Of a DNA stretch of 27,229 nucleotides, positions 2,101 to 23,265 are shown in pieces (the stretch's first letter is position 1; each line of letters begins with the position of its first letter). Location of the stretch: IMG/VR virus record IMGVR_UViG_3300027917_000030. One strand, 5' to 3'. The position numbers and the translations under genes were made by a program. Origin of the DNA: a virus. Taxonomy: Duplodnaviria; Heunggongvirae; Uroviricota; Caudoviricetes. A model generated the notes under the pieces. That model had not been told where the DNA came from. It made no database searches and saw only the letters and a program-made list of their open reading frames with translations.

Positions 2101-2547
2101 TTACTTCTCCTCTTTGATAGTAGGAAGTTGTTTTTGTGAAGATTGCATCGGATTATCGAAATCTACTCGCCAGCCACCTTTTGGCTCCTTGTCCCAGGCC
2201 AAACGATGGCGAACTACTTGCTGAATATCCCACGTCATTTTGGCTTCCTCGGGAGTTTCTTTACAAAAGATTCCTAGAGAAGCATTGGGTGGGTGTAAGG
2301 TTAAATGAAATTTCGCTTTGTTTAAATGTTCTTTAGCCTCGCCATAGCGTAAATCAAAATCTTCGCGTCCTACAATCTTCCTCCAATTAAAAGCATAAAT
2401 AATTTCCTGAAACTGTCCCAGTCCGATCCTTGAATAGAGATCGAGGGCTTTAATCAGAACTTTTGCTTGGTCTTCATCTATGTGTAAAGAATATTTACGC
2501 ATTGCGTAATCCCTGTTTGCGAATCGGTTTAAACATCCAATGATCAT
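2101..2547 (-). CDS. Hypothetical phage protein
   Basis: 148-aa ORF in the tiling strand; true start may be the internal Met (MRKYSL). Confidence 0.75.
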   Translation of the reverse strand: MIIGCLNRFANRDYAMRKYSLHIDEDQAKVLIKALDLYSRIGLGQFQEIIYAFNWRKIVGREDFDLRYGEAKEHLNKAKFHLTLHPPNASLGIFCKETPEEAKMTWDIQQVVRHRLAWDKEPKGGWRVDFDNPMQSSQKQLPTIKEEK

Positions 2548-3241
2548 CTGGCTCTTTCGGGTGGTCGCTACGCACCCATTTAGCCACCGAAAGAGAGAAA
2601 TCTATTTCATTAGTAAACCTTCCCTTCTCAACAAATTCCCTCGCCTGTCTAACAACAACCCCTTCTCTTTCACCCCCGTATGCAGATGGTGCGTGTGCCA
2701 GGTCATTGGTTAATTTCTCAAGCTCTTCCGGACTCCCAACCACCCCTTTCCATAGAATAGGAACTGTAGGGAGGTGCAACTGTCTTGCCCTTATCTCGGT
2801 TAGAATATGTGACCACCAGAAGGGACCTGGTGGATGTGTCATTTTGAATTCAATAGGTACTTTTTTATGATCCCACCGATGGCCAAACACCAGAAAGTAT
2901 CCCGGTAAATCTGTATACTCGATGCTATGAACTGCGTAACACCACTCGCCCCAAATGGATACACCGGGATCCAATTTATCACGGATTTGCGCATGAAGTG
3001 CTTTTGCTAAATCAAAAGACTTATGAGTTGGAGGACCGCTATGAGATCTTGCATAGACCGCATCTCTTGTCATACAGAGATTGGATCCATCCATTTTCTC
3101 CGTGATAACAATCTTCTTTGATATTAAATGCCAAACGGTTTTCAATCTTTTATCATCGTTGGTTCCACCAGGTGACCACGGGAGGTGGGGTATCCTTGGG
3201 TATTTATTAGATGTCAACGTACTCACAGTAAAACTCTTCAC
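2495..3241 (-). CDS. ATP-dependent RNA ligase family protein (single nucleotidyltransferase domain, KYPRxPHLPWSPG type)
   Basis: KYPRIPHLPWSPG..DD, ITEKMDGSN (I), GEWCYAVHSIEY (III), YFLVF (IIIa), EREGVVVR (IV), AKWVR (V). Start codon uncertain. Confidence 0.88.
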   Translation of the reverse strand: MKSFTVSTLTSNKYPRIPHLPWSPGGTNDDKRLKTVWHLISKKIVITEKMDGSNLCMTRDAVYARSHSGPPTHKSFDLAKALHAQIRDKLDPGVSIWGEWCYAVHSIEYTDLPGYFLVFGHRWDHKKVPIEFKMTHPPGPFWWSHILTEIRARQLHLPTVPILWKGVVGSPEELEKLTNDLAHAPSAYGGEREGVVVRQAREFVEKGRFTNEIDFSLSVAKWVRSDHPKEPDDHWMFKPIRKQGLRNA

Positions 3242-4602: not shown

Positions 4603-5700
4603 TTACACCTTTTCTGGTAGGTTACGAGATTTACAATGTTTTATTGTCTTTTCGATCTTCTCCACATCATCGGATAACACAATAAATCCATGACCCAATA
4701 AATTAAGCCCGAAAAATGTATAGCCGTTAGATTCTTTTAGCCGTATTATTTCATCGGCTTCTTCTGTAGCCCCACATGGTATTACCATAGAGGTATAGGA
4801 AAATCCGTGTAGATAAACATGTCCGTGAAGAATATAGTTTACCTTCGGATAATAGTTAAACAATCGTATCTGGCTTGGTGCGTCAACCGATGGTTTACGA
4901 TTTCCATAGTATACCACTTGCTTTACATCTACTCCAGTAAATGTAGGAGATACTGCAACAAAGCCATTCCTATCAATCACCTTCTTATCTACATTTCTCT
5001 GTGATACATAGATGAACCCATTGCTGCCCCTGAATGATGGAAACCCTCCCTGAGTGCACCTGAATGAGGCATTTCCTAAAAACCTTGAGGGATTAGCAAC
5101 ACTCGGAACCAGGTTATGAAACTTCTTTCCAGCCTCTTTAATTAAAGAAAAGAACTCCTGCTCATCGGGTACTTCTACAAATGGTACTCCCTGTACACTG
5201 CCCATACGAGTGAAGGACCGCAACTCTCTGATTCGCCTTCCGATTTTCTCGCCAACAAACACAAAATCCTCAGTCCAATCTAGAAACAGATTGCCCAAAG
5301 GATCAATCAGCCGTGCTTTAATACGATCCTCTTTCTTGATTTCCAGGAAAAGGTTTGCCTTTACGGCAAGTGCTCGCTGTGTTAAATCTGCCAGCGTATA
5401 TTTATCGTCGTCGTTTCGCTTGGAGATTATCAGCGTACATTTATAATTTCCCTTTTTAATCTCACCCACGAATTTCGTTTCCACATCATTGGATATATTC
5501 GGGAGCCACAAAACTGCATCGGCAGTCTTGGTGAGGTTTATTAATGCTGGTAGAGACTCAATTGGTCCACCATTAAAGGTTTGGACGGCATGTTCTCCAT
5601 TAAAATAACTGTCCAATCCATTATGGATGTGATCACCCACCTTGGAGAATTTACCACCATCTTCGTCAAAGGTTCCGCAAACAGTAATGATTTTCATCAA
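4603..5700 (-). CDS. Two-domain protein with C-terminal class II aldolase/adducin-like domain
   Basis: GNASFR, KPSVDAPSQIRLFNYYPKVNYILHGH (class II aldolase PS..; HxH metal site), NLLGHG; N-terminal alpha/beta domain unassigned. Confidence 0.72.
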   Translation of the reverse strand: MMKIITVCGTFDEDGGKFSKVGDHIHNGLDSYFNGEHAVQTFNGGPIESLPALINLTKTADAVLWLPNISNDVETKFVGEIKKGNYKCTLIISKRNDDDKYTLADLTQRALAVKANLFLEIKKEDRIKARLIDPLGNLFLDWTEDFVFVGEKIGRRIRELRSFTRMGSVQGVPFVEVPDEQEFFSLIKEAGKKFHNLVPSVANPSRFLGNASFRCTQGGFPSFRGSNGFIYVSQRNVDKKVIDRNGFVAVSPTFTGVDVKQVVYYGNRKPSVDAPSQIRLFNYYPKVNYILHGHVYLHGFSYTSMVIPCGATEEADEIIRLKESNGYTFFGLNLLGHGFIVLSDDVEKIEKTIKHCKSRNLPEKV

Positions 5701-6533
5701 AACAACACCGATGCCCTACTATTCCAGGAAGTGTACAGATGACCATCCTCCAGGAACACCAATGACCGCAAGTCACCACCACAATCACGCTCTTGAATAC
5801 AATAGTCTGATCGCGATACGGAGACCCCTTCCATATCCCATATAGTCACGCCAGAATTAAGAGATCGAATCAACTTGCCCTTACCAGCCAAAAGGCCACT
5901 TAATTTATCACTGAACCTTAAAAACTCCCGACTTGTTGGCGTATTCTGTTCAACCCACTTAGCGACTTTTATATCCTGTGGCCTTTCGGGAGCAATCACT
6001 CGCCGAAAAGTCAGATGCCTGATCCCAAGTGCCTTACATACAGCGATAAGATCATCTATAGGCTCTGGCATTTTCTCCATGACCTTGTTGGTAAGATTAA
6101 GCGTAACACGCGAAATCATTCCAACATAATTAATCATACGAAACACTTCATCAAATTTTCCCAATTGGCTCAATCCATCAATTGAGATGGCTACTACATT
6201 GATTCCAAAACCATCGAGTTTGTGTAGCAGCGACGGATTATTGCAGAGGCTAATGCCATTTGTCTGAATCTCTAAAGGAAAATCTCTAAAGATTTTACAG
6301 AAACACTCCAGTTCCTTAAGAGATAATAGTGGCTCACCTTTACCAGTAAACAGGATCGAGGTAACTTCCGCTGCCCTTGCTACGCTTTTAACCTTTTCAG
6401 CGTTCTCAATCATCCGCTCGTAGTTATTCTCTACATAGCCAGTCATCTTTGAGATACAGTAAGGGCAGTTCTTATTACACCCATTATTCGGGAGTGAAAT
6501 CGTTAAATTTTCTGCCTTTAGATCTTTACCCAT
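5697..6533 (-). CDS. Radical SAM superfamily enzyme
   Basis: CNKNCPYC (CxxxCxxC), FTGKGEPLL, IQTNG, VAISID. Confidence 0.92.
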   Translation of the reverse strand: MGKDLKAENLTISLPNNGCNKNCPYCISKMTGYVENNYERMIENAEKVKSVARAAEVTSILFTGKGEPLLSLKELECFCKIFRDFPLEIQTNGISLCNNPSLLHKLDGFGINVVAISIDGLSQLGKFDEVFRMINYVGMISRVTLNLTNKVMEKMPEPIDDLIAVCKALGIRHLTFRRVIAPERPQDIKVAKWVEQNTPTSREFLRFSDKLSGLLAGKGKLIRSLNSGVTIWDMEGVSVSRSDYCIQERDCGGDLRSLVFLEDGHLYTSWNSRASVLF

Positions 6534-8376: not shown

Positions 8377-8601
8377 TCACCTATAAAGAGTTCCCATGCT
8401 TCCTACTATAATACCCAAACCATTTGAGCATTCACAGAAATAAGAATATCTATTCCTGTAAAATAGTGTATGTTGCGAAGGTCTGCAGAAATCTCGACAT
8501 GCCTTTACAACCTCTGGATTAATTTTAGGTGGTCTGTACACAACAGCCACTGCACAGGATGATAAAATAACAAGCACCAAAAGCAAAAAGAAACGTTTCA
8601 T
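8377..8601 (-). CDS. Putative lipoprotein, Cys-rich
   Basis: MKRFFLLLVLVILSS-C lipobox-like signal; ACRDFC...YFCEC. Confidence 0.7.
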   Translation of the reverse strand: MKRFFLLLVLVILSSCAVAVVYRPPKINPEVVKACRDFCRPSQHTLFYRNRYSYFCECSNGLGIIVGSMGTLYR

Positions 8602-9227
8602 AACTTTTCCTCCAATGCCTTTCTAAGGGCCTCTATATCATTCTTTGTGATTACAAGGTTTTCCAAACCAAGTGTAGGATACATTACATCTTTTGGATTA
8701 TCTGAATGATAATCGCCTATAATAACATGACCAATCTCATGGATTATAATGGTCTTAAATAATGGGGCATGTTTGTTTAGAATAAAGACATCTCCTGTAT
8801 AAATCATTGTCATTCCGAGATGACTATGATGATTGCCCAAAACTACCATAACATGTGCTGGCCAATGCGAGAAAGATGATGCATCATAGATGGTGGGGAC
8901 TCCATCGATACGCCAAGTAAACATCTCAGAGAACTGGACATCCACAACAACGCCCTCCAGTTTAACCAACCCCTGAGATTCTGATTCCCAGTCTTTCATC
9001 GCTTCCCTAATAGAAACGATCTCTTCTTGCGAGAATCTGGAATCGATCCTAAAATGTACGATACTTCTGGTCGAAAGCCCAGGCACATAATCAGATACGC
9101 CCGCATCGGGACCTAAATCCCTTATCTGTTTCTCGATTGAATGTTCAACGAAAACGACATAACTCGCTGCAATTACGAGAAGAATGCCTAAAAAAAGTAG
9201 AACTGATTTAATCTTTATTCTCATCAA
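8598..9227 (-). CDS. Membrane-anchored matrixin-like (metzincin) metalloprotease
   Basis: N-terminal TM; IREAMKDWE; IIIHEIGHVIIGDYH zinc motif; Met-turn DVMYP. Confidence 0.85.
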   Translation of the reverse strand: MMRIKIKSVLLFLGILLVIAASYVVFVEHSIEKQIRDLGPDAGVSDYVPGLSTRSIVHFRIDSRFSQEEIVSIREAMKDWESESQGLVKLEGVVVDVQFSEMFTWRIDGVPTIYDASSFSHWPAHVMVVLGNHHSHLGMTMIYTGDVFILNKHAPLFKTIIIHEIGHVIIGDYHSDNPKDVMYPTLGLENLVITKNDIEALRKALEEKL

Positions 9228-10534
9228 CTCTCCTTTAAGAATTGCTTAGCAATATTTTTCCAGATCTTTTCCAAAGCATCCACATGTCCCTTATGCCCAT
9301 CGCTTCCGTAAAAGTGAGCCGCTTCGTGAGCAATGACACCAATAGCACTGGAACATGAGTGGAGAGTCTTGCGGCTAATGTAAATCCTTTCCTGCTTAAA
9401 CTGTCCTAACATTTTATCAGAGTTGAATTTAACTATCGAGATAATATCCCTGAAAGTGGATCCTTGGTCACCAACAGCATTGCTTACAATGTTTGTTGCT
9501 TTAAGATAGTTGATCCGTTCCAATGGAGAGAGTTCAGAAAGTTCATATGTCTTCACAATGTTACCCATCAACTTTTGTTTAACATCGGTCAGACCGCCAA
9601 ACTTCTGCCACAAAACTCCAACCAATGGCTTGCTGGGAACAACAATCCCCGTCGCCCCTAAGTGCCCAAGTTCTTGTGCCTCACCATCATTAGTTACAGG
9701 ATATGCTTCTCCACACTCTTCTTTCCACCTATTTGCAAAATGATTTAACAAGTCATCAGTAAGATAATTATGATATTCAAAAGACCTGATATCTTTGGTA
9801 TTTGCTACCAACAGATCATATAGGGGATCCCTGAGTTGCTCATCTGCAAGGGCGGCTTCCTTCCAGATATTCATCACAGTATACTCAACGTCAAATCCTC
9901 TTACAACACGGCGGTCCCTGTCAACATCAACTCCCTTAAGATCATATCCGTGCTGTAGACCTTCTTCTACCTGAACAAAGATGCCCTTTACAAAGATCTT
10001 CCCAGCATATTCCTCATCCATTATAAGAGTACCATAATAGTTTTCGTAGAACTTTTTAGGAGAGTGAAGGAATAAGAAGTTTTTCTTCTGCTCCTCCCAC
10101 TCATCAACATTAAATTCAACATCAATTCTCAACACATCCTTTGGTGTTGTCGAGCGAGAAATCTTAAAGCACAACACATCCTCGTCAAAAGTTCTACTAC
10201 GATCGATTACGGGGGTCCATATCTCATCACCCGAATAAACCTTAACTTTACGGCCAGCCCGAATCAGGGCGAGAACCCCAAGTTTGAACCCCTCACCAAA
10301 CTGCCCAATCTGATCCTCCCTGCCCTCCTTTGTGGTGTGCCCGAATAATAGTACCTTATGTGACAGGCTAACACCTTCGTTTTCAATTCTTAGAATTTTC
10401 TTCCTGGGGGAACTGATGGTCATGGGGAATCCATCTACTTCAGCATCCCTAGCATTTTGGACCAATTCCCGTATCCCCTCAAGTACGCCCCAGTCAGAAA
10501 GGTAGGTTGCTTTAATCGAAAGTTCTACTTTCAT
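9224..10534 (-). CDS. GHKL-fold ATPase with C-terminal HExxH motif
   Basis: WGVLEGIRELVQNARDA (N-box), IENEG (G1-like), IGQFGEGFKLG (G2); C-terminal VIAHEAAH...H. Confidence 0.85.
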   Translation of the reverse strand: MKVELSIKATYLSDWGVLEGIRELVQNARDAEVDGFPMTISSPRKKILRIENEGVSLSHKVLLFGHTTKEGREDQIGQFGEGFKLGVLALIRAGRKVKVYSGDEIWTPVIDRSRTFDEDVLCFKISRSTTPKDVLRIDVEFNVDEWEEQKKNFLFLHSPKKFYENYYGTLIMDEEYAGKIFVKGIFVQVEEGLQHGYDLKGVDVDRDRRVVRGFDVEYTVMNIWKEAALADEQLRDPLYDLLVANTKDIRSFEYHNYLTDDLLNHFANRWKEECGEAYPVTNDGEAQELGHLGATGIVVPSKPLVGVLWQKFGGLTDVKQKLMGNIVKTYELSELSPLERINYLKATNIVSNAVGDQGSTFRDIISIVKFNSDKMLGQFKQERIYISRKTLHSCSSAIGVIAHEAAHFYGSDGHKGHVDALEKIWKNIAKQFLKES

Positions 10535-10576
10535 TTTAACTCCATTTTAGCCTTGTCGATTGATACCATCAATGCT

Positions 10577-10604
10577 TTATACCCCTAGTTTCCCAGGGGT
10601 ATAA
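10577..10604 (-). other. Stable RNA hairpin with GAAA tetraloop (terminator, processing or stability element)
   Basis: Minus strand TTATACCCCT-GG-GAAA-CT-AGGGGTATAA: 12-bp stem including one G.U pair; no U-tract follows. Confidence 0.6.
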
Positions 10605-10609
10605 GGAGT

Positions 10610-10909
10610 TTACAGACCAAGCTCCTTGCGGAGGTCGGCAGCCTTATCCCTCTTCACAGCGGGCTTCCGCTCAGCCACCTCGACCAGTTCACAACTTTCG
10701 CTTTGAAACACGATCCGAGAGGTGAGAGAACCACTCTGTGACTCATAGAGTTTGCCCTCCAGCACAACTTCCTTGCCATTGGCGTCCACGAAAGTTAGAC
10801 GCACGACCTTAACATTACCATCCGAAGCCTGCATCGCACGCTTCTTCTCGTCATCTGAAAGAGTCTTGGAGCCGATAATAGTAGCATTGCCAGTGATTTG
10901 AACGACCAT
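10610..10909 (-). CDS. Small beta-rich protein, tandem paralog B
   Basis: AGGAG SD; shares GN.TI..SKTL, G.EVVLEG.LYES..GSLT.R and terminal ELGL with 10978-11289. Confidence 0.9.
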   Translation of the reverse strand: MVVQITGNATIIGSKTLSDDEKKRAMQASDGNVKVVRLTFVDANGKEVVLEGKLYESQSGSLTSRIVFQSESCELVEVAERKPAVKRDKAADLRKELGL

Positions 10910-10921
10910 TTTGTTTCTCCT

Positions 10922-10967
10922 AAAGAAATAAAAGGAAAGCCCTGGAATTTCCTACGCCCCAGGGCTT
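10922..10967 (-). terminator. Putative intrinsic terminator or attenuator between the paralogs
   Basis: AAGCCCTGG-N13-CCAGGGCTT 9-bp inverted repeat followed by TCCTTTTATTTCTTT on the minus strand. Confidence 0.6.
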
Positions 10968-10977
10968 AGGCGTGCGA

Positions 10978-11289
10978 TTAGAGACCCAACTCGACAGCAA
11001 GAGTCTGTGCAGTCTGCTGCTTGTCTTCCTTAACCTGAGATTGCTTCGCCTCTACCTCCACAACCTCAAACCTCTCAACCTTGGTGTTGAAACGAGCAGT
11101 GAGACTGCCCGCCTTGGACTCGTAGAGGCGACCCTCCAGAACCACCTCGTTACCGTCGACATCCAGAAGAGTAACGCGCAGAGCCTTATTCTTCCCTTCC
11201 GGAGCCTCGAGAACCTTCGCCTTATCGGCGTCGGTCAGAGTCTTAGAGTTAGCAATAGTGATGTTTCCGTTCAGTTGCAACTTAGCCAT
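10978..11289 (-). CDS. Small beta-rich protein, tandem paralog A (strong high-expression codon bias)
   Basis: AAGGAG SD; all 11 Lys codons are AAG; paralog of 10610-10909. Confidence 0.9.
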   Translation of the reverse strand: MAKLQLNGNITIANSKTLTDADKAKVLEAPEGKNKALRVTLLDVDGNEVVLEGRLYESKAGSLTARFNTKVERFEVVEVEAKQSQVKEDKQQTAQTLAVELGL

Positions 11290-11439
11290 GTCAATTCTCC
11301 TTTTCTGGCTTCGTCCCTATCGACCCTAATCTCCATGATCAGGTAGGTTCAGGACTAGTTTTTCCTATTTGGAGATTTTTGGTTTCGTCGAATTTGAATC
11401 GGCGGAAAAAAATTTTCGAAAATCACGCGCACGATATTT

Positions 11440-11467
11440 TTTATAACTTTTTTCTTGATTGTAACAA
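11440..11467 (-). promoter_or_regulatory. Putative sigma70-type promoter
   Basis: TTGTTA-N16-TATAAA on the minus strand in the only large AT-rich intergenic region (11290-11503). Confidence 0.5.
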
Positions 11468-11503
11468 CCCTATTTAACACCTCCTCTAGACCGTTATTGT
11501 GCG

Positions 11504-13245: not shown

Positions 13246-13515
13246 TCAAAAATCATTACCGGTACAAGAATCCCCCTTTCTGATGTAGGGGTATCCAATC
13301 TGCGCTTGTAGGTCAGCAACAGCCTGCTCTTCGGTTTGTCCATGACCCTCAATGCCAACTACCTGATTGCAAGTGGCAATAAACAATTTATCTTTTTCTT
13401 TTACTGTAGCCTGGCATAGAATAATCATTTCGCCAGTCTTGGCATAGAACTCCCAATAACTCGTCGGAGTGTGAATATGCCCACACTTTTCACACACAAA
13501 GTTCATTATTCTCAC
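13246..13515 (-). CDS. Zn-ribbon plus HicB-like domain protein
   Basis: CEKCGH at the N-terminus; FIATCNQVVGIEGHGQTEEQAVADL matches the HicB N-domain pattern (G.T.EEA). Likely true start is ATG 13506. Confidence 0.65.
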   Translation of the reverse strand: MRIMNFVCEKCGHIHTPTSYWEFYAKTGEMIILCQATVKEKDKLFIATCNQVVGIEGHGQTEEQAVADLQAQIGYPYIRKGDSCTGNDF

Positions 13516-22596: not shown

Positions 22597-23265
22597 TCAA
22601 AGATATCCTTTGTCATACCCATCCTCAATAAGCCGAACTGCACCATTCGGTGGGTTAGGCTCCTTCTCAAACCACTCTGGCGTGAGATGACACCACATCA
22701 TCACGAAAGCGCGTAATGTAACACCATGACAAACAACAACAATGTTATTGATACCATGGCGATCCCGATCGCGGTGAAAAGTGCCGAAAGATTGGTGGAC
22801 TCTTGTGGCAACATCGAAGCGTGACTCTCCTAGAGGCATACGCGCCCAAAATCTACCACCGAACTTTTCACACTTATCATAATAAGCGTGCTCTTGGGGA
22901 AATACTTTCGGAAGTTCGCTCGTAGGTATGCCATCAAACAATCCAAACTGTTGTTCGCAGAGAAGGATATGTTCCTTTCTATCTCTTATCAAATTTCCGA
23001 CTGTCTGCTGAATTTCGTCAGCCGTCTCTCTTGTGCGCCTATATGGGCTAACCCATAGGCGTAGGGAAATTCTTCCTCGTTCCATTCCCATTATTAGTAC
23101 ACGTTTATTGATTGCACTAATGTTTTCAGAAATTACCTTTCCTGCCTGGCGCGCCTGCTCCTTGCCCTTTTCTGATAGACCAATAGCATGATCTGCTTTA
23201 ACTTTATGGACACTGCGATCGACGTTCGATTCCGACTCGCCGTGCCTTACAAGAAAAATTCTCAT
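22597..23265 (-). CDS. Histidine phosphatase (phosphoglycerate mutase family)
   Basis: LVRHGES, VSPYRRTRETA, LCEQQFG, PLGES, VVCHG. Confidence 0.93.
   Translation of the reverse strand: MRIFLVRHGESESNVDRSVHKVKADHAIGLSEKGKEQARQAGKVISENISAINKRVLIMGMERGRISLRLWVSPYRRTRETADEIQQTVGNLIRDRKEHILLCEQQFGLFDGIPTSELPKVFPQEHAYYDKCEKFGGRFWARMPLGESRFDVATRVHQSFGTFHRDRDRHGINNIVVVCHGVTLRAFVMMWCHLTPEWFEKEPNPPNGAVRLIEDGYDKGYL

Follow-up and report, generated by a model that had tools for sequence, protein, structure and literature searches.

What is the role of two adjacent paralogous genes that carry a promoter-like site, a leader and hairpins of their own? This question is raised by a stretch of 27,229 nucleotides (nt) of virus DNA (IMG/VR record IMGVR_UViG_3300027917_000030, class Caudoviricetes; here referred to as the window), in which the genes A and B form a cassette between positions 10577 and 11467. 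Our analysis of the window and of related loci revealed that the cassette is a conserved, self-contained expression unit of an uncultured lineage of large phages, encoding two paralogs of about 100 amino acids (aa). The initial annotation of the window had described an insulated, specially expressed cassette, and the retention of the tandem pair in relatives supports that description. What it had called a "150-nt leader" and a "terminator-like hairpin", however, are conserved, gene-specific RNA structures with covariation, which it had missed.

Two conserved RNA structures accompany the genes

Read from 5′ to 3′, the cassette consists of the promoter-like site, a GC box, a leader of about 140 nt, the sequence GGAG, gene A, a spacer of 68 nt that contains a hairpin and a T-rich tail, a second GGAG, gene B, and a final hairpin (Table 1). 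Like the cassette, all sizeable open reading frames (ORFs) of the window lie on the minus strand. The feature coordinates given in the initial annotation proved exact, and several of its observations were reproduced: the two genes are tandem paralogs (48% identity, BLASTP E value of 2e-25), both have strong Shine-Dalgarno sequences, and both encode the motif LEG(R/K)LYES..GSLT.R and a C-terminal ELGL. The region upstream of gene A, described there as the only large intergenic region, is a gap of 214 nt (11290-11503) and constitutes the largest stretch of the window that is free of minus-strand ORFs of at least 50 aa, followed by one of 161 nt.

The first RNA structure, motif 1, is located upstream of the first gene of the pair, and in the related loci L005 and L147 each paralog is preceded by its own copy. 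It is composed, in this order, of AAAUAGG, the 5′ strand of a stem (P1), (G/A)AACCUA, a variable hairpin (P2), GUCGAUA, and the 3′ strand of P1 (GG and three further nucleotides). In the window, P1 is formed by GUCCU (11351-11355) and GGGAC (11313-11317), the invariant internal loop by GAACCUA (11344-11350) and GUCGAUA (11318-11324), and P2 occupies positions 11325-11343. Among 11 distinct instances, 96.4% of the cells are paired and 8 of the 10 pairs changed on both sides, in 27 cells, while sixteen nucleotides of the loop are invariant. None of 500 shuffles matched the observed pairing or the covariation score, and shifted registers gave at most 57% pairing. P1 ends 21 to 26 nt ahead of the ATG in the window, L001, L002, the upstream copy of L005, L008 and L009. 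When 124 kb of related phage DNA was searched with a covariance model of the motif (R1), matches were obtained exclusively upstream of family genes. The cassette therefore possesses a conserved, gene-specific structured leader near the ribosome-binding site, as is characteristic of an autogenously regulated mRNA. A different hairpin (GGACC UAUAA GGUCC) precedes the ribosome-binding site of the single-copy P0043 gene at L143 (4781-5003).

The leader is also well conserved as sequence. Its 158 nt are 83% identical between the window and L001, whereas the synonymous difference between the same two loci is 0.54 for gene A, 0.62 for gene B and 0.83 for the adjoining gene of 436 aa. The leader is thus under much stronger constraint than synonymous sites, and the lower values of A and B indicate that their synonymous sites are in turn more constrained than those of the adjoining gene.

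The second structure, motif 2, is located just past the stop codon in A-type genes and often also in B-type genes. Its stem of 7 base pairs (bp) is formed in the window by GCCCUGG (10959-10965) and CCAGGGC (10939-10945). Over 13 instances the stem is 96.7% paired, and six of its seven pairs changed on both sides; the corresponding covariance model (R2) matched exclusively downstream of family genes in the same 124 kb. The loop starts with GGCG, which can pair with an upstream CGCC, and ends with AAAU(A/U), so that in the window an H-type pseudoknot is possible between GGCGU (10954-10958) and ACGCC (10969-10973), with an A-rich third loop followed by a T-rich tail. The second helix of this pseudoknot was judged by eye from the sequences and carries no pair counts, since MAFFT left the variable spacer unaligned. 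The CGCC/GGCG helix is intact in 11 of the 13 instances; L143 has a U.G pair together with two extra pairs (CUCGCU with GGCGAG), and the downstream copy of L004 has a C.A mismatch. A fifth pair is A-U in three instances, U-A in three (L143 among them), C-G in one and U.G in one. Taken together, the sequences suggest that the motif 2 hairpin probably forms a pseudoknot. A pseudoknot at this position could in principle drive stop-codon readthrough; this idea was rejected because L001 has two consecutive stop codons.

The hairpin after gene A had been described as terminator-like. Its 11-bp stem is followed by a T-rich tail, and the hairpin itself is upheld by covariation in relatives. With regard to an intrinsic terminator, its loop measures 9 to 13 nt and its T-rich tail is interrupted, and a consensus scanner called no terminator at the cassette. 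The folding energy taken alone is unexceptional (z of −0.98). The GNRA hairpin reported after gene B was recovered as well, with a z of −3.55 and none of 200 shuffles folding equally well. At the same position, L001 has a 12-bp hairpin of different sequence in which the GAAA loop is kept.

Both motifs lack a family in Rfam 15. The only Rfam overlap on the window was freshwater-2, with 19 bits against a gathering threshold of 49.9 (E value of 3.9), and 63 kb from seven related loci gave no Rfam match on either motif. A search of IMG/VR for the pattern AACCTAC-N(8-30)-GGTCGATAGG returned 13 matches, all of them chance occurrences with neither a hairpin nor a family gene. The same pattern occurs at least 120 times in prokaryote genomes, and R1 accepted none of the first 100 of these matches (best score of 22 bits, E value of 0.056).

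Table 1. Features of the cassette in the window
Feature	Position	Strand	Details and basis
Promoter-like site	TTGTTA 11462-11467, 16 nt, TATAAA 11440-11445	minus	sequence
GC box CGTGCGCGTGA, directly downstream of the A/T-rich stretch	11423-11433	minus	sequence; relatives compared
Leader RNA motif 1	11308-11380	minus	11 instances, covariation
Shine-Dalgarno sequence GGAG of gene A	11297-11300	minus	7 nt before ATG; 12 nt past the end of P1
Gene A (upstream), 103 aa	10978-11289	minus	beta-rich core 1-80, charged flexible linker, C-terminal helix ending LAVELGL
RNA motif 2, between genes A and B	10927-10977	minus	13 instances, covariation
Shine-Dalgarno sequence GGAG of gene B	10917-10920	minus	7 nt before ATG
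Gene B, 99 aa, paralog of gene A, ending LRKELGL	10610-10909	minus	sequence
3′ hairpin, 12-bp stem, GAAA tetraloop, without U tract	10577-10604	minus	folding versus shuffles

Promoter region and codon usage

The initial annotation placed a sigma-70-like promoter in front of the leader. Hexamers that fit the pattern are indeed present (TTGTTA-16-TATAAA), but the consensus scanner rejected them and called no such promoter at the cassette, and the −35 element is not kept in relatives. What the relatives do retain is an A/T-rich −10 stretch resembling TATAAAAA, followed by the box CGTGCGCGTGA. The box occurs once in the window, and it precedes the cassette in L001, L002, L004, L005 (twice), L008 and L009. 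Second sites were found in L008 (8675-8685, before a ClpP gene) and in L009 (7140-7150, before a different gene, of 71 aa), and these carry a trailing GAAAA...UUUUC stretch. This distribution suggests a rare phage-specific promoter or start-site element rather than a plain sigma-70 site; CGTGCGCGTGA may be part of a phage-specific promoter or transcript start region and could mark a rare class of such promoters.

The composition of the two genes sets them apart from the rest of the window. Their G+C content is 0.52 each, compared with 0.43 for the window, and the G+C content at third codon positions (GC3) is 0.621 in A and 0.576 in B, whereas the 52 other minus-strand ORFs have a mean of 0.390 (standard deviation of 0.040, maximum of 0.495). 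The excess over that mean amounts to 5.8 standard deviations for A and 4.7 for B. Lysine is encoded by AAG in 11 of 11 cases in A and in 9 of 10 in B, as opposed to 271 AAG and 285 AAA codons elsewhere. The raised G+C and the exclusive use of AAG in A, both noted in the initial annotation, were therefore confirmed. A similar GC3 excess is found in the pairs of L001 (0.65 and 0.67 versus 0.36 in other genes), L005 (0.57 and 0.71 versus 0.42) and L008 (0.57 and 0.57 versus 0.27). In L009, which has 27% G+C, it is nearly gone (0.13 and 0.19 versus 0.14). The proposal that the host is richer in G+C than the phage is not supported, given this relative that is almost without bias. Recurrence of the excess across relatives agrees better with codon usage being under selection than with a recent import.

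When the window is compared with L001, the ratio of nonsynonymous to synonymous substitution rates amounts to 0.22 in A and 0.12 in B, showing that both genes evolve under purifying selection. From the codon bias, the strong ribosome-binding sites and a putative private promoter, we infer that protein output is very high.

Protein family and predicted dimer

No characterized family was found for A and B in Pfam, PHROGs, NCBIfam or PADLOC, a check that the initial annotation had left to database searches. The best Pfam matches had E values of 0.04 to 0.09, far short of the cutoffs, and none of 50 aligned family members reached the cutoff of any family. In PHROGs there was a weak match to a tail protein (E value of 0.001 over a fragment of 40 profile positions), the NCBIfam match scored 17 bits against a cutoff of 100, and PADLOC gave none. 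A word-indexed search yielded four close relatives. When 1.84 billion representatives were searched exhaustively with a HMMER profile, 80 clusters were obtained with E values of at most 0.001, 38 of them of at most 1e-10, mostly of about 100 aa. Long repeat proteins among these matches were rejected as fused relatives, since they match the short D..G.EV hairpin motif only and their domains are unrelated. No match to the cassette, as DNA or protein, was found in the 50,697 phage records of INPHARED, and a family-profile search of IMG/VR gave no relative; the scan of one metagenome added one locus, L004.

The AlphaFold2 model of protein A, based on an alignment of 50 sequences, reached a predicted local distance difference test (pLDDT) score of 89.4, with values above 92 across residues 1-80. 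It contains a strand (4-11), a helix (20-27), three further strands (36-42, 48-57 and 63-71) and, beyond a linker of low confidence, a second helix (93-100). Structural searches with two models covered the PDB (Foldseek), 48,161 PDB representatives (VIA-align), BFVD and the ESM Atlas, and none gave a significant match (best Z of 3.5; best Foldseek E value of 0.035 in the PDB and 0.017 in BFVD; best Atlas template modeling score of 0.45). A feature search of the ESM Atlas gave no usable match either. The top PDB sequence match, the single-strand-binding protein ORF34 of lactococcal phage p2, was not significant (E value of 0.87). The predicted topology is strand-helix-strand-strand-strand-strand, and no protein with an oligonucleotide/oligosaccharide-binding (OB) fold appeared among the Foldseek or VIA-align rows (best Z of 2.9 to 3.5).

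In the window, the globular parts of the two proteins carry net charges of −1 and −2, and the isoelectric points (pI) of the whole proteins are 5.5 and 7.8. Averaged over the family, the core has a mildly basic charge (mean of +2.3) and the tail a mildly acidic one (mean of −1.4). K3, Q5, G8, T11 and I12 are conserved columns. The amphipathic C-terminus reads L-A-x-E-L-L-G or ...ELGL, its Gly is not invariant, and it is preceded by a charged linker of 15 to 25 residues. The frequent ELLG ending had suggested a ubiquitin-like tag, which was rejected because many members end in ELLA, ELLS, SLL or ALL and lack the Gly. The linker in front of the motif, and a predicted topology that begins with strand and helix rather than with a beta-hairpin, likewise set the family apart from ubiquitin-like modifiers of the beta-grasp type.

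The initial annotation had proposed a hetero-oligomer, and oligomerization is supported by structure prediction. The complex of A and B scored 0.78, compared with 0.00 for the best of three controls; this mark is reached by 58 of 80 solved complexes and by 2 of 110 mismatched pairs, reference counts that are only approximate here, because our own alignments were used. Contact agreement between runs was at least 95% and the pLDDT of the partner at least 83. In the predicted symmetric interface of 165 to 175 contacts, strand 1 runs antiparallel to strand 1′ across the two-fold axis (residue 11 of chain 1 with residue 4 of chain 2, and 5 with 10), and residues 73-81 of each chain extend the sheet of the other chain by one strand, next to its strand 2 (36 with 75, and 76 with 36). 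The pairs 11 with 4, 5 with 10 and 36 with 75 are the closest contacts. The tails beyond residue 81 are outside the interface. A and B are thus predicted to form an intertwined, strand-swapped dimer that leaves two flexible charged tails free, each with a short amphipathic end helix (consensus LAxELLG; ELGL here). Because A and B are paralogs, the prediction fits an A/B heterodimer and A/A or B/B homodimers alike, and the hetero- part of the proposal does not follow from it. Strand swapping may explain why the monomer model has no fold match. Judging from the alternation of residues, strand 1 probably turns the hydrophobic L4, L6, I10 and I12 toward the core and the conserved polar K3, Q5 and T11 toward the solvent.

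Relatives and genomic context

The initial annotation had suggested checking whether relatives keep the tandem pair. It is nearly universal among the contigs examined, being kept in L001 (107 and 99 aa), L004 (108 and 102), L005, L006 and L007 (105 and 102), L008 (107 and 104), L009 (105 and 104), L147 (114 and 102) and the contigs of P0005 (106 and 107) and P0091 (107 and 106); the P0043 gene is solitary. In a maximum-likelihood tree, A and B of the window fall with their orthologs from L001 and L004 into one starred clade of 13 rows. The pairs of L005, L008 and L009 mix other clades, their downstream genes sharing one and their upstream genes falling into two others. Since pairs combine different clades, two diverged copies have been kept or regained more than once.

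The family contigs examined are phage-like, with co-directional, tightly packed small genes, HNH and GIY-YIG nucleases and tRNAs, and one family member resides on a contig of 460,921 bp. Recurrent neighbors are a CCA-adding enzyme, RNA ligases, Thg1, Tpt1, a histidine phosphatase, CinA, ClpP, an M10 peptidase and a PHROG 6077 protein of about 435 aa. On the minus strand of the window, 384-1457, 2495-3241, 5697-6533 and 22597-23265 encode two RNA ligase homologs, a radical SAM protein and a histidine phosphatase, and relatives additionally encode the CCA-adding enzyme, Thg1, Tpt1, NADAR, CinA and ClpP. These neighbors place the cassette within an accessory region rich in RNA-repair genes.

Several further observations concern the surroundings of the cassette. 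Directly 3′ of it, a 436-aa protein is encoded (9224-10534, minus strand) whose N-terminus is of the sacsin-like GHKL ATP-binding type (NCBIfam NF047352, E value of 2e-8; PHROG 6077) and which has a zinc-peptidase-like HEAAH motif near its C-terminus; in L001 its gene has the same position, whereas in L005 and on the P0005 contig a few genes separate it from the cassette. Between the 3′ hairpin and this gene there is a second promoter-like site (10544-10572, minus strand; TTGATG, 17 nt, TAAAAT), and the adjacent sequence GCATTGATGG is conserved in L001. A matrixin-type metallopeptidase (Pfam M10) of 209 aa with a hydrophobic N-terminus is encoded at 8598-9227 (minus strand), and L005, L008, L009 and L147 each have a homolog at a distance of no more than a few kb from the cassette. 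In L005, a tRNA match (13292-13387) contains a 26-nt insertion in the region of the anticodon loop, possibly an intron; other tRNAs are located in L009 (7949-8021) and L147 (686-755).

What the cassette may do

The explanation that we put first, and hold as tentative and short of probable, is that the cassette encodes a dimeric nucleic-acid-binding or adaptor protein that is made in bulk from an mRNA carrying its own feedback and stability elements. Acting as an operator, the leader element would let the dimer, or a factor to which the dimer responds, limit its own translation. The 3′ element would stabilize the transcript or set the ratio between genes A and B. The exposed face of the paired N-terminal strands, with K3, Q5 and T11, would be the likely contact to nucleic acid, and the C-terminal peptides would recruit a partner. 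T4 gene 32 and the ribosomal-protein operons are precedents for feedback through a leader.

Several observations weigh against this explanation. Profile and structure searches detected no nucleic-acid-binding family or fold, and the slightly acidic cores of the window proteins are unusual among nucleic-acid binders, though the family mean is basic. Other roles are conceivable for the conserved leader, such as those of a riboswitch, a thermometer, a processing site or an element that simply confers stability, and P0043 (L143), the most distant member examined, is without motif 1 and keeps motif 2. Finally, the second helix of the pseudoknot is mostly invariant, with variation at the fifth pair only, and this pair is unpaired (U.U) in five instances, including the downstream copy of L004; the pseudoknot is therefore plausible yet less secure than the stem.

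We consider it possible, though not likely, that A and B are instead abundant virion-associated proteins, such as capsid decoration or cement, internal head or scaffold-like proteins, whose C-terminal helix, borne on a flexible linker, docks on the capsid and whose RNA elements do no more than provide a stable and strongly translated late mRNA. Small, beta-rich, strongly codon-biased proteins that are predicted to oligomerize and have their own promoter would fit virion components. The only conserved part of the promoter-like region, the A/T-rich TATAAAAA-like −10 stretch without a conserved −35, resembles T4 late promoters, T4 soc and ipII/ipIII are also situated among accessory genes, and the weak PHROG match to a tail protein points the same way. 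However, no structural genes were recognized in the window or in 10-kb flanks of relatives, where the neighbors are RNA-repair and accessory genes. Moreover, no solved or predicted viral structural protein was matched, and sixteen invariant loop nucleotides exceed the needs of a stability hairpin.

It appears doubtful that the cassette is a regulatory module of huge phages not seen before, in which a strand-swapped dimer of new fold binds the invariant AACCUA/GUCGAUA internal loop, and perhaps the 3′ pseudoknot, of its own mRNA and, by means of its tethered C-terminal peptides, couples this mRNA, or other RNAs such as the tRNAs and Y-like RNAs that the phage repairs, to a host or phage machine. 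If true, this would mean a new RNA-binding fold and two new classes of cis-regulatory RNA.

We rate as unlikely that the protein is a bivalent adaptor or decoy in which the dimer core binds a cargo or target and the two tethered C-terminal LAxELL peptides attach to a hub machine, for example a Clp unfoldase, a clamp, RNA polymerase or the ribosome. Such a protein would match the family-wide predicted dimer core, the charged linker and the conserved terminal amphipathic peptide, and in L008, L009 and the P0091 contig a phage gene for ClpP is found upstream at a distance of one or two genes. ClpP was not recognized, however, among the Pfam-scanned ORFs of the window or in L005 and L147, and neither sequence nor fold resembles SspB, SSB or stalk proteins. 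Nor are adaptors normally made at the very high levels suggested by the codon bias, and the gene-specific RNA elements would be left unexplained.

The initial annotation proposed an early hetero-oligomer for the bulk coating or shielding of DNA or other nucleic acid, or for host takeover. We regard this as improbable. High output and an oligomer are predicted, and the best, nonsignificant PDB sequence match is a single-strand-binding protein. Coating and shielding nevertheless gained no support from window proteins that are near neutral or acidic in core charge and pI, or from a model of pLDDT 89 with which no OB fold or other DNA-binding fold was found, and no observation points to early timing. 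Most improbable of all is a recently acquired foreign cassette (moron) whose higher G+C reflects the donor rather than the level of expression, because, despite its own promoter-like site, hairpins and deviating composition, the cassette is retained with flanking synteny in relatives whose synonymous sites are near-saturated, its GC3 excess recurs in phages of 37 to 44% G+C, and searches of 100 bacterial genome loci, IMG/VR and INPHARED gave no relatives.

Many genes of huge phages have no known role. What makes this cassette notable among them is that several signals of investment are independent, namely the putative private promoter, the recurrent codon selection, the repeated retention of two copies and the two dedicated covarying RNAs. 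It constitutes a compact system of two proteins of about 100 aa and two RNAs of about 50 to 70 nt, which could yield a new protein fold, an RNA-protein recognition pair and an example of post-transcriptional control in phages. Both RNA motifs are candidate new Rfam families irrespective of the role of the protein.

Comparison with known systems

That a small, abundant protein can have a regulatory leader is a known idea; the libraries searched contain no description of the family, of its predicted fold or of either RNA motif. ORF34 of lactococcal phage p2 (PDB 2wkd) is, like A and B, a small phage protein (about 100 to 120 aa), and as the top PDB profile match it aligns over residues 11-51. 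The match is not significant, however, and ORF34 was absent from both structural searches (Foldseek and VIA-align). With SspB, SSB and the ribosomal stalk proteins P1/P2, the family shares an architecture, as predicted here, in which a charged, disordered linker joins a dimeric core to a terminal helix that is short and conserved, and P1/P2 are likewise paralogs of about 11 kDa that pair; the difference is that homology or a shared fold is not detectable. Phage morons and the T4-type promoter/stem-loop cassettes that have reportedly been described are similar in that a unit of atypical composition, located in an accessory-gene region, is bracketed by its own promoter and stem-loops. In contrast to these, the present cassette is old and syntenic in its lineage, and its flanking RNAs are family specific rather than a general repeated module. 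T4 gene 32 and the ribosomal-protein operons differ in that gp32 and ribosomal proteins are unrelated to A and B in sequence and fold, that the pseudoknot of the cassette follows the stop codon instead of lying in the leader, and that binding to the leader is putative here. What they have in common with the cassette is an abundant small protein (inferred in our case), a long, conserved and structured 5′ leader by the ribosome-binding site, a gene-specific RNA element, and a pseudoknot-type structure on the transcript.

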